Below are positions 23,969 through 26,374 of a DNA stretch of 64,000 nucleotides, piece after piece. Source of the DNA: Candidatus Poribacteria bacterium (lineage in GTDB: Bacteria > Abyssobacteria > SURF-5); NCBI GenBank assembly GCA_016215705.1, contig JACRIR010000130.1, positions 1,456 to 65,455 on the forward strand, read 5' to 3'. The translations under genes were made by a program, and so were the position numbers. Below the pieces are notes generated by a model that saw only the letters and a program-made list of their open reading frames with translations, was not told the DNA's origin and did not search any database. Each line of letters begins with the position of its first letter. Positions within the stretch are counted from its first letter, which is position 1.

Positions 23969-24757
23969 ATGGCAATAGCGATTTTCATAACGGGCACGGA
24001 TACCGAGATCGGCAAGACGGTCGTTGCCGCCGGCCTTGCGCTCGCCTTCCGCAAGGCCGGCCTTGACGTCGGCGTCATGAAACCGGTCGCTACCGGCTGC
24101 CTTCCTCGTCACGAATCAAGCGCATCGGGGGAATCGGAAAATAGGGACAGCCCCGTTGCGAAGGGTCTGTCCCTATTTTCCGAAGACGTGGAATACCTTA
24201 TGGACGCGTGCGACTGTAAAGACGAGCGCAAACTCGTTTGCCCATACATGCTTCGCGAGCCACTCGCGCCGGAAGTCGCTGCCGAACTCGAAGGCGTCAG
24301 GATCGACGTCCGCAAGATGGTCCGCGCGTACAAAGAGCTTTGTCGAAAACACGACGCGCTGATTGTCGAGGGCGCGGGTGGTCTGCTGGTTCCTATCAAG
24401 AAGAACTATTTCATGGTGGACCTCATCACGGCGTTTTCGGCCCCTATAATCATCGTCTCGAGACCCGGACTGGGGACAATCAATCACACGCTTCTTACGC
24501 GCGAGCTTGCAGGGGCAAGAGAAATCGGTGTCGCGGGGATAATAATCAACAACTATGTCGAAAGGCCCTCCCTCGCGGAGCGAACCAATCCGGACGTGAT
24601 CCGTCGCTACTCCGGCGAGCAACTATTGGGAATAATGCCTCAACTGGCGGGGGTGTCGGTCGCGCGCAAGAAATATGAGGGACTCCTCGAGGCTACCGAA
24701 GCAAACATTGATGTTGACAGAATCTTGAACTATATGGGAAGAACACGCCGCCGATGA
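23969..24757 (+). CDS. bioD: Dethiobiotin synthetase (with ~30-aa low-complexity insertion encoded by a palindromic element)
   Basis: [24 protein letters not shown] is the BioD P-loop, followed by GAGGLLVP. A perfect 15-bp inverted repeat is embedded in-frame at 24136-24181. Confidence 0.85.
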
Positions 24758-24790
24758 GTTGAAATGGGAACAGAGAGTTTACAGGGCAAA

Positions 24791-24820
24791 CCTCCCCCGC
24801 CCCCTTTGCGAAAAGAGGAG
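24791..24820. repeat. REP-2 palindromic repeat copy
   Basis: CCTCCCCCGCCCCCTTTGCGAAAAGAGGAG. Confidence 0.6.
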
Positions 24821-24877
24821 AAAACAACTTCGTTTTCGAGCAACTATTCGCCCCTCTCTCATGAGGGGTATCCTGAT

Positions 24878-24912
24878 GACCCCCCTCTTGCAAAGGGGGC
24901 AGGGGGGGATTC
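24878..24912. repeat. REP-2 palindromic repeat copy
   Basis: GACCCCCCTCTTGCAAAGGGGGCAGGGGGGGATTC. Confidence 0.7.
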
Positions 24913-24964
24913 AGCAAAATCAGTATTGTGCCCCCGGAATCCTCCGCGATTCGAGGAGAATATC

Positions 24965-26374
24965 ATGCAAAGGAACAAGCGCGCGCGAAACGACGCCGAC
25001 CAACTCGAGATAGACGACCGGAAGTTCATCTGGCACCCTTTCACACAGATGCAGGATTATGTGGCGGAGACGCCACTGATCATTGAGCGCGCGAAGGGCT
25101 CTTATCTATACGACATTCGCGGCAGAAGATATCTCGACGGAGTATCTTCGCTATGGGTTACGGTTCACGGCCACAGGAAGCGCGCGCTCGACTCCGCCGT
25201 CAGGAAGCAGATCAGCATGGTCGCCCATTCGACGTTGCTCGGGATATCGAATGTGCCGGCGGTCAAACTCGCGAAAATGCTTGCTGAGCGAGCGCCAAAG
25301 GGGCTCACAAAAGTTTTCTATTCCGACAACGGCTCGACCGCTGTCGAGGTCGGCCTCAAGATGGCCTTTCAGTATTGGCGACAACACAGGAGCGGTTCGC
25401 ACAAGAAGCGGACGAAATTCATCTGCTTCGAGAATGCTTATCACGGCGACACTATCGGGAGTGTTGGCGTAGGCGGTATCGATCTTTTCCATGAAATGTA
25501 CCGTCCGTTGCTTATGGAATCGATACGTGTGCCCGCGCCGTATTGTTATCGGTGTGAGAAAAACAGGAACAGACCCCATTCTTCTGAAGAGAAAAATGGA
25601 GTCTGTTCCTGTTTTTCGTGTATCCAGGCTGTCGAACAGGCGCTCAGGGAGCATGCCGGCGAGGTTGCCGCACTTGTGATCGAGCCGCTCGTGCACGCGG
25701 CGGGCGGAATAATTGTTCAGCCTCCGGGCTACCTCAAGCGGATTCGCGAGCTTTGCACGCGCTACGGAGTTCTCATGATCACGGACGAGGTCGCGGTCGG
25801 CATCGGGCGCACCGGAACGATGTTCGCATGCGAGCGCGAGGATATCTCGCCTGACATTTTGGCGATTGCGAAGGGTTTGACCGGCGGATACTTGCCGGTC
25901 GCAGCCACGCTGACAACCGAGGAAATTTACTCCGGTTTCCTCGGCGCGTACGACGAGTTTCGGACACTTTTTCATGGCCACACATACACTGGCAACCCGC
26001 TGGGCTGCGCTGCCGCAATTGCAAACCTGGAGATTTTCGACCGGGAGCAGACCCTCAAGAAAGTGCGGAAGAAGGCGGAATTGCTTGAGAGATTATTGCG
26101 ACCGCTCGCAGAGCTTCATCATGTCGGCGACATAAGGCAGTGCGGCCTCATGGTCGGTATCGAACTTGTCAAAGACAAGAATTCCCGCGAGCCTTATGAC
26201 TACAGCGAGAAAATGGGCATAAGGGTCATCATGGAGGCCAGGCGCCGCGGCATGATAATTCGCCCGCTCGGCAACGTTATCGTACTGATGCCGCATCTCA
26301 CATTCAGTCCCGCCCAACTGGAGCGCATGGTCGCTATCACACGCGTCTCAATTGAAACAGTAACACAAACGTAG
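24965..26374 (+). CDS. bioA: Adenosylmethionine-8-amino-7-oxononanoate aminotransferase
   Basis: Class-III aminotransferase: FIWHPFTQ, DGVSSLWVTVHGH, ITDEVAVGIGRTGTMFA, FHGHTYTGNP. Start taken at MQRNK; the upstream ORF-track extension is REP-2 repeat sequence. Confidence 0.88.
   Translation: MQRNKRARNDADQLEIDDRKFIWHPFTQMQDYVAETPLIIERAKGSYLYDIRGRRYLDGVSSLWVTVHGHRKRALDSAVRKQISMVAHSTLLGISNVPAVKLAKMLAERAPKGLTKVFYSDNGSTAVEVGLKMAFQYWRQHRSGSHKKRTKFICFENAYHGDTIGSVGVGGIDLFHEMYRPLLMESIRVPAPYCYRCEKNRNRPHSSEEKNGVCSCFSCIQAVEQALREHAGEVAALVIEPLVHAAGGIIVQPPGYLKRIRELCTRYGVLMITDEVAVGIGRTGTMFACEREDISPDILAIAKGLTGGYLPVAATLTTEEIYSGFLGAYDEFRTLFHGHTYTGNPLGCAAAIANLEIFDREQTLKKVRKKAELLERLLRPLAELHHVGDIRQCGLMVGIELVKDKNSREPYDYSEKMGIRVIMEARRRGMIIRPLGNVIVLMPHLTFSPAQLERMVAITRVSIETVTQT

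Follow-up and report, generated by a model that had tools for sequence, protein, structure and literature searches.

In-frame palindromes in the bioD and bioA genes of an uncultured bacterium as probable insertions of a REP/REPIN-type repeat

The biotin operon of a bacterium labelled Candidatus Poribacteria (assembly GCA_016215705.1, contig JACRIR010000130.1) raises the question of why two adjacent enzyme genes should each contain, within the translated reading frame, a long and almost perfect palindrome. The genes are bioD, for a dethiobiotin synthase of 262 amino acids (23969–24757, plus strand), and bioA, for an adenosylmethionine-8-amino-7-oxononanoate transaminase of 469 amino acids (24965–26374, plus strand). 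The DNA of the host genome that we examined was the 64-kb window that holds them, by which we mean the whole stretch of 64,000 nucleotides (nt) that was analysed. Gene names are based on the source names of matching sequences and on Pfam families, and the two window proteins are each 100% identical to a protein in our comparison set (BioD to P0001, BioA to P0121). Most probably, the palindromes are copies of a dispersed family of the repetitive extragenic palindromic (REP) or REPIN type, with the core GGGACAGACCC / GGGTCTGTCCC, which lie in frame in bioD and bioA, were mobilised in trans by a REP-associated tyrosine transposase (RAYT), and are now largely neutral passengers.

The element in bioD is a short-form hairpin of REP type that spans 50 nt (24134–24183, plus strand). 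Its perfect 15-nt arms, GGAAAATAGGGACAG (24136–24150) and CTGTCCCTATTTTCC (24167–24181), are separated by 16 nt and lengthen to 21 nt with one mismatch (24134–24154 and 24163–24183, 95% complementary), which leaves a loop of 8 nt; the in-frame translation runs from S56 to E72 (17 residues). The bioA element is a long form of 60 nt, comparable to a REPIN doublet (25558–25617, plus strand), in which perfect 17-nt arms, GAAAAACAGGAACAGAC and GTCTGTTCCTGTTTTTC, lengthen to 28 nt with two mismatches (25558–25585 and 25590–25617, 93% complementary) around the 4-nt loop GAAG. It is translated in frame as EKNRNRPHSSEEKNGVCSCFS. Both inverted repeats and both translations agree with a preliminary description of this DNA, except that the additional 5' A it had included in the bioA repeat is unpaired. 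The same description had assigned the repeats to a single motif family, and in a scan of the window the only matches to GAAAAYAGGRACAG with zero or one mismatch were indeed the four arms. What it had taken for a third copy, upstream of bioB (GGAAACAGGGACTG, 21548–21561), has two mismatches and lacks a partner arm, and 1.28 such matches are expected per window by chance. A match at 20011 was likewise judged to be a chance occurrence.

The probability that the palindromes are chance structures or artefacts of assembly or sequencing is vanishingly small, and no point in favour of this explanation was found. In the window, perfect inverted repeats whose arms reach 15 nt or more and lie no further than 30 nt apart number eight (the bio pair and six copies belonging to another family), against approximately 0.002–0.02 expected by chance. 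As RNA, the bioD hairpin folds at -36.3 kcal/mol (z -7.1) and the bioA hairpin at -37.9 kcal/mol (z -8.0), with none of 200 shuffled sequences folding as well in either case. Homologous elements are also found in relatives. Both palindromes are present without change in an independent Logan assembly (L193), and therefore they are not assembly artefacts. L193 and the window differ outside the palindromes by one mismatch and one 1-nt homopolymer indel; the latter falls in a run of G in the repeat between bioD and bioA (24902 in the window, 938/939 in L193) and is probably an assembly or sequencing ambiguity.

Alignment with orthologues, which had been proposed as a check, shows that both segments are insertions. 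The nearest relatives are labelled Lindowbacteria, Hydrogenedentota or Abyssubacteria, and among the nearest orthologues the BioD proteins of 243 amino acids and the BioA proteins of 458–460 amino acids do not have the segments. Extra residues between ATGC and SEDVEYL of BioD are confined to the window protein, P0002 (87% identical) and P0003 (81% identical), and orthologues of 241–246 amino acids are without them. The difference in length is 19 residues (262 versus 243 in the nearest orthologues) rather than the 30 or so first estimated. At the DNA level the empty site of locus L127 reads C-R-S-H-R-G-N-R-I-S-E-D, with others similar, and at the same place the window reads 13 and then 14 residues ahead of SED. 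An AlphaFold model of BioD has a mean predicted local distance difference test (pLDDT) score of 89, with residues 51–65, which are encoded by the hairpin's left arm and loop, scoring below 50; the right arm encodes a strand (67–70) that pairs with residues 45–48. According to this model the insert would lie between these two strands, its 5' part forming a disordered loop. Translational bypass of the element, with GAA...GAA as take-off and landing sites, was considered and set aside, since the element is open in frame and bypass is unneeded.

The insert in BioA lies between two pairs of cysteines, CYRC and C-x3/4-C. These four residues (C194, C197, C214 and C219; codons within 25544–25621, plus strand) are invariant in all 17 of the 17 aligned sequences of this BioA subfamily, which come from several phyla, and are only partly present in the Bacillus subtilis enzyme. 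They may form a structural metal site that clamps the loop accepting the insert. Most orthologues have a short loop at this position (PLELEETT and similar), L127 and L128 have empty sites, and in a sequence alignment B. subtilis BioA (PDB 3DOD) is gapped there. This alignment was used to place the loop, as an AlphaFold model of BioA built on the 17-sequence alignment was unusable (mean pLDDT 55).

The same loop has received inserts of 9 to 37 residues from two repeat families in five lineages, all of which belong either to the clade of the window or to one separate lineage. In L001, L004 and L005 it holds an unrelated repeat of the type CCCCCTTTRCAAAGGGGG, encoding PPLxKGG, and in L006 it holds a perfect palindrome, GTGGGGACAGACCCC-N53-GGGGTCTGTCCCCAC. 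A neighbour-joining tree from which the loop was excluded places the window BioA in one clade with P0122, P0123 and P0127 and the L006 protein (P0130, which is approximately 80% identical to everything) elsewhere, and therefore the palindrome family entered the loop at least twice. In all five insert-bearing bioA genes the codon for the third cysteine is part of GTC TGT YCC, the right-arm core of the repeat, and the spacing is C-x4-C, versus TGC GRC and C-x3-C at empty sites. In the window this codon is the TGT at 25604–25606, within the GTCTGT of the right-arm core, so the repeat now supplies that cysteine codon. Selection for cysteine at this position may have filtered the insertions that survived, and it is possible that insertion was targeted to the loop.

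The best evidence that these segments belong to a dispersed family comes from a sister species (CAYVDS01; L003 and L005, which are 99.6% identical across their overlap and represent one species). It contains at least eight nearly identical copies on different contigs, of the form GGRAAAT-R-GGGACAGACCC-N8-GGGTCTGTCCC-Y-ATTTYCC. An intergenic copy at 9019–9062 of L005, GAAAGTAGGGACAGACCC-tttgccac-GGGTCTGTCCCTATTTTC, is almost the same as the bioD element, and a scan of the GTDB species genomes with the core recovered seven further copies on other contigs of the sister genome. Of these eight, five fall unambiguously between genes, a sixth is immediately 5' of the start of a gene, another is in a doubtful open reading frame (ORF), and the last is intragenic and in frame, deep in a gene for an ABC solute-binding/permease fusion (L047), where it is read as GENGDRPETKGLSPFS and is followed directly by a PPLAKGG repeat. 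Ten orthologues of this fusion do not have the segment; one of them is labelled Candidatus Poribacteria and is probably from the same genome as the window. Stems are conserved from copy to copy and show co-variation (TA:TA versus TG:CA), while the 8-nt loops are all different. The bioD copy had the best score (57 bits) in an nhmmer model built from seven sister-species copies and that copy itself, and the bioA element, being a longer variant, matched less well. The dispersed and mostly intergenic copies of the sister species, together with the orthologues that do not have the segments, therefore uphold the proposal in the preliminary description of lineage-specific in-frame insertions similar to those of Rickettsia.

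The core is not limited to this lineage. Scanning GTDB genomes with it gave more than 120 loci in many phyla, and outside the clade, where the search pattern did not include the flanks, the flanking consensus was GAAAWN-GGGGACAGACCCC-RWTTTYC. Hosts ranging from 36% to 74% GC share the 11-nt core flanked by GAAAAT/ATTTTC. In long-form copies from other phyla each arm is itself self-complementary around a loop ACAGA (4.5 of 8 flank positions paired, versus 3.2 when permuted), and the bioA element aligns over its full length of about 60 nt with such copies at 62–78% identity. In a collection of viral contigs the core was found at 8 loci, against 1, 0 and 2 loci for three control cores of matched composition; a variant with TCAGA, core GGGTCAGACCC, was found at 27 loci in that collection versus the 8. 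A pattern scan of metagenomes gave 26 loci, mostly from organisms of 60–70% GC, with no clear copy from the clade of the window, and a literature search for the literal core sequences returned unrelated primers only.

Clustering of all ORFs at the loci that matched the pattern brought out transposase genes. At four loci, in four different groups, GGGACAG[AC]CCC palindromes directly flank a gene of family PF01797 (IS200-like Y1 transposase): L017 (5968–6841, Clostridia), L019 (3950–4853, Thermoleophilia), L093 (6562–7365, Usitatibacter) and L187 (3174–3852, a metagenome contig of 64% GC). All four proteins have NF047646, 'REP-associated tyrosine transposase', as their best NCBIfam match, at 63–78 bits, which is far above their IS200 scores and below the equivalog cut-off of 80. 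Since the same core flanks RAYT-like genes in other phyla, the elements behave as REP/REPIN-type repeats, the wider class to which Rickettsia palindromic elements (RPEs) also belong; membership of the family in a REP–RAYT system is likely, although the case for it is incomplete. The clustering also produced a group of 16 loci with apparent UvrA, which was a product of single-linkage chaining of ABC ATPases and was discarded as such. A palindrome truly lies in frame within a UvrA-like ORF at two loci only, one copy in each of two Rhodocyclales: L024 (a Rhodocyclaceae metagenome-assembled genome), with EIGDRPRFPAGNRGLSPIS, and L071 (Aromatoleum toluclasticum), with EIGDRPQFEIHKLGSVPYF.

It could be argued instead that selection keeps the hairpins as cis-elements with a function in the bio operon, such as RNA attenuators, RNase III or RNase E sites, pause sites, or binding sites for a DNA regulator, and binding sites or attenuators specific to this locus had been put forward as an alternative from the beginning. 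The occurrence of two related hairpins in neighbouring genes of the same operon, with no other in 64 kb, would fit this explanation, as would their great stability, the terminator-like character of the bioA element (flagged by a terminator scan on the minus strand only), and the presence of the same family at the same bioA loop in L006, where the arms differ from those of the window by four paired, compensatory changes. The arms are also more conserved than 4-fold degenerate sites when the window is compared with L003. However, in the closest bioD orthologue (L001) the left arm has decayed and the fold is no longer significant (-22.2 kcal/mol, z -1.3); the L003 hairpin is also weaker (-17.5 kcal/mol, z -3.6). 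Divergence from the window at 4-fold degenerate sites is 0.35 for L001 and 0.46–0.51 for L003/L005. In the three closest bioA orthologues the left arm is replaced by the unrelated repeat, most BioA and BioD orthologues have nothing at the site, and identical elements occur in unrelated intergenic sites and genes. Searches of Rfam at gathering and permissive thresholds returned generic hairpin matches below threshold only and no family match. The bioD hairpin is followed by TATTTTCC, and both hairpins sit within translated ORFs rather than where a transcription unit ends.

The operon moreover has a regulatory site of its own. Approximately 200 nt upstream of bioB (21569–22576, plus strand), which is followed in the operon by bioF (22696–23898, plus strand), lies a canonical BirA-type operator, TGTCAACC-N14-GGTTGACA (21345–21374, plus strand), that is overlapped by a promoter-like site, TTGACA-17-TAGCAT (21369–21397, plus strand). 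The consensus of the BirA operator is TGTAAACC-N14-16-GGTTTACA; the site is the sole match in the window, against 0.005 expected, and it is kept upstream of bioB in L128 (5500–5529), which has no intragenic palindromes. The operator is no part of the elements, and the palindromes themselves do not resemble the consensus and are not conserved in orthologues. The decayed hairpin in the bioD orthologue, the unrelated repeat in the bioA loop and the separate operator make it unlikely that the palindromes regulate the bio genes specifically, and we regard selected cis-elements as quite improbable as an explanation of the palindromes. Such stable hairpins in a polycistronic mRNA could still affect its translation or decay.

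Several observations weigh against insertion by a REP-type family and have to be set beside those that support it. Neither the window nor the approximately 100 kb sampled from its clade yielded a RAYT-like gene, and in the nhmmer search of the 64-kb window there was no copy beyond the bio pair; two copies 1.4 kb apart in one operon are more clustered than chance would allow for a small family. An unpaired GTAG/CGTC tag is lacking, the flanks ATAG, ATGG, ACAG, GTGG or TTAG being within the stem, and GTAG itself appears sporadically only (in the left arm of the L005 copy). Comparison with empty sites defined neither a target-site duplication nor a clean insertion boundary, and in each gene part of the right arm falls on codons for residues that align as native. 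Lastly, the arms diverge between the window and L003 by approximately 7%, against approximately 50% at 4-fold degenerate sites, which could reflect constraint; at third codon positions of the arms 3 of 12 differ where about 50% would be expected, an excess of conservation that is not significant and suggestive at most. There was no consistent direct repeat at the flanks of nine copies, and the region of the intergenic L005 copy offered no usable empty site when aligned with L001 and L127.

Some of these points favour the idea of an origin in situ, in which template switching would have duplicated adjacent native coding sequence in inverted orientation, with no mobile element involved. The right arms coincide with natively aligned codons (LxxSED in BioD, the third cysteine in BioA), only the left halves look new, and the absence of a detectable target-site duplication would be as expected. 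This is very improbable, given that the same sequences of 44–60 nt, left halves included, are present, both in other phyla and in the sister species, at loci unrelated to these genes, and that the supposedly native C-S-H-F of the insert-bearing BioA proteins is the right-arm core of the REP, whereas empty-site genes have C-G/D-M-A-C. Template switching may nevertheless help to keep the arms perfect. Quasi-palindrome correction by this intrastrand mechanism, reportedly described by Ripley in 1982 and by Dutra and Lovett in 2006, would explain near-perfect arms, paired changes and freely varying loops in the absence of selection, and could thus give the arm conservation noted above; it is, however, a mutational mechanism and defines no family of elements.

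If the palindromes are REP-type insertions, as we propose, copies would have landed within bioD and bioA, and their survival would have needed three conditions: a net insertion that is a multiple of three, no stop codon in the frame used, and a peptide placed in a tolerant loop. In this lineage the copies would have been mobilised in trans by a RAYT with the single-stranded hairpin as its substrate. Both enzymes would still work and would carry the insert as a largely neutral passenger, which in BioA now provides one cysteine codon, and the near-perfect arms may persist through quasi-palindrome correction and not through selection.

Among known systems the closest are the REPs, which are mobilised by RAYTs and for which the REP–RAYT arrangement is described (Bertels and Rainey 2011, PMC3116915; Di Nocera et al. 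2013, PMC3733652). Intragenic REPs that are read in frame, as singletons or as dimers, and encode 20–30 residues are already on record, and so are genes in which a single site holds different REPs, as well as REP insertions in uvrA (PMC3733652). Like REPs and REPINs, the elements studied here are short palindromic units that are dispersed mostly just outside genes in the sister species, have conserved stems and variable loops, and in four genomes directly flank a Y1 transposase gene; in the bioA copy and many other long-form copies the units are paired in inverted orientation to give a long hairpin, while the bioD copy, the short form, is a single long hairpin. They differ in the missing tag, in transposase scores under the NCBIfam cut-off, in the failure so far to find such a gene in this lineage, in the small size of the family (at least eight, approximately ten, copies seen in the sister genome), and in an 11-nt core that is common to several phyla, described REP families usually being lineage-specific.

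The comparison with Rickettsia in the preliminary description was correct as to the wider kind of element, but not as to the family, which is of REP/REPIN type and is not one of the RPE families themselves. RPEs are approximately 100–150 bp long and form Rickettsia-specific families, and Ogata et al. in 2000 reportedly found them in frame in unrelated housekeeping genes, where the extra peptides are said to be compatible with the protein fold. Our elements share the in-frame position in unrelated housekeeping genes and the translation into extra, fold-compatible segments. They are set apart from the RPEs, as these are described, in being 46–60 nt long, apparently unrelated in sequence and without CGTC, in having a non-rickettsial, uncultured host, and in their linkage elsewhere to RAYT-like genes. 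RPEs are the classic in-frame palindromic insertions (PMC10969869) and end in CGTC (PMC3733652). Bacterial miniature inverted-repeat transposable elements (Correia, ERIC, Nezha and others; PMC10969869) are also small, non-autonomous and hairpin-forming and are sometimes fused in frame to host ORFs. Unlike the present elements, in which no duplication was detected and the whole element is one hairpin, they consist of terminal inverted repeats with target-site duplications and derive from DDE-type insertion sequences.

The finding adds a further case to the known in-frame insertions of REP/RPE type; the lineage is new, and its REP family carries no tag. Selfish DNA of this in-frame kind, known within genes of Rickettsia and of a few proteobacteria, is thereby extended to an uncultured lineage. 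The case departs from the ordinary in three ways: the cysteine loop of BioA has been reused by two repeat families, so that one enzyme loop serves as a repeated landing pad; the core supplies the codon for an invariant cysteine; and the 11-nt core has RAYT-like neighbours across phyla, an unusual conservation through which the specificity of RAYTs for DNA could become open to testing. In genome annotation, the family accounts for odd extra segments in BioD and BioA and for recurring peptides such as ENGDRP...GLSPFS in predicted proteins. A bolder interpretation would have a single REP–RAYT lineage with a near-invariant core GGGACAGACCC spread over at least five phyla (host GC 36% to 74%), which twice colonised the cysteine loop of BioA, its TGT replacing the codon of an invariant, probably metal-binding cysteine, with the core co-opted as coding sequence and the hairpins kept for the sake of the protein or the bio mRNA. 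We consider this rather unlikely.

The window contains further repeats that are separate from this family. A second family consists of palindromes of about 45 nt, GCTTATTCGGGGACACCATGC-G-GCATGGTGTCCCCGAATAAGC, with copies at 1356–1398, 27676–27722, 36751–36799, 42199–42243, 43441–43483, 47738–47784, 54344–54386, 56018–56060 and 59035–59081. All of them but one lie within approximately 110 nt downstream of a gene end, the copy at 36751 being about 430 nt past the nearest listed ORF, and one is located between two genes of the pyruvate/2-oxoacid dehydrogenase E1 type (26707–27669 and 27765–28757). This family is present in L001, L003 and L005 and was not seen in L006, L127 or L128; its variant at 56018 (AGAAAATCGGGGACAC...) resembles the bioD arm. 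A third family, based on CCCCCTTTGCAAAGGGGG (peptide PPFAKGG), is found at 22616–22646, 23915–23960, 24788–24911 and 28770–28907. Every spacer between genes of the bio operon is filled by this family, so that the operon holds five repeat elements in 4.8 kb, and among relatives the family occurs in frame in BioA (L001, L004 and L005) and adjoins the GGGACAG element in the ABC-transporter gene of L047. Palindromes starting with GTAGG, for example GTAGGGGCACGGCG|CGCCGTGCCCCTAC, occur in the window at 29389–29417, 53295–53322 and 61811–61879, in L006 at 8813–8842 and in L001 at 1311–1389; these look like classical GTAG-tagged REPs and would be a further, separate class of repeat. The longest inverted repeat of the window is a perfect one of 32 nt, AATCAAACCGCAAAGGCGCAAAGTTCGCAAAG, with a 68-nt spacer (54962–55093), and similar CTTTGCG-rich repeats are present in L005 (9080–9230) and in L001.

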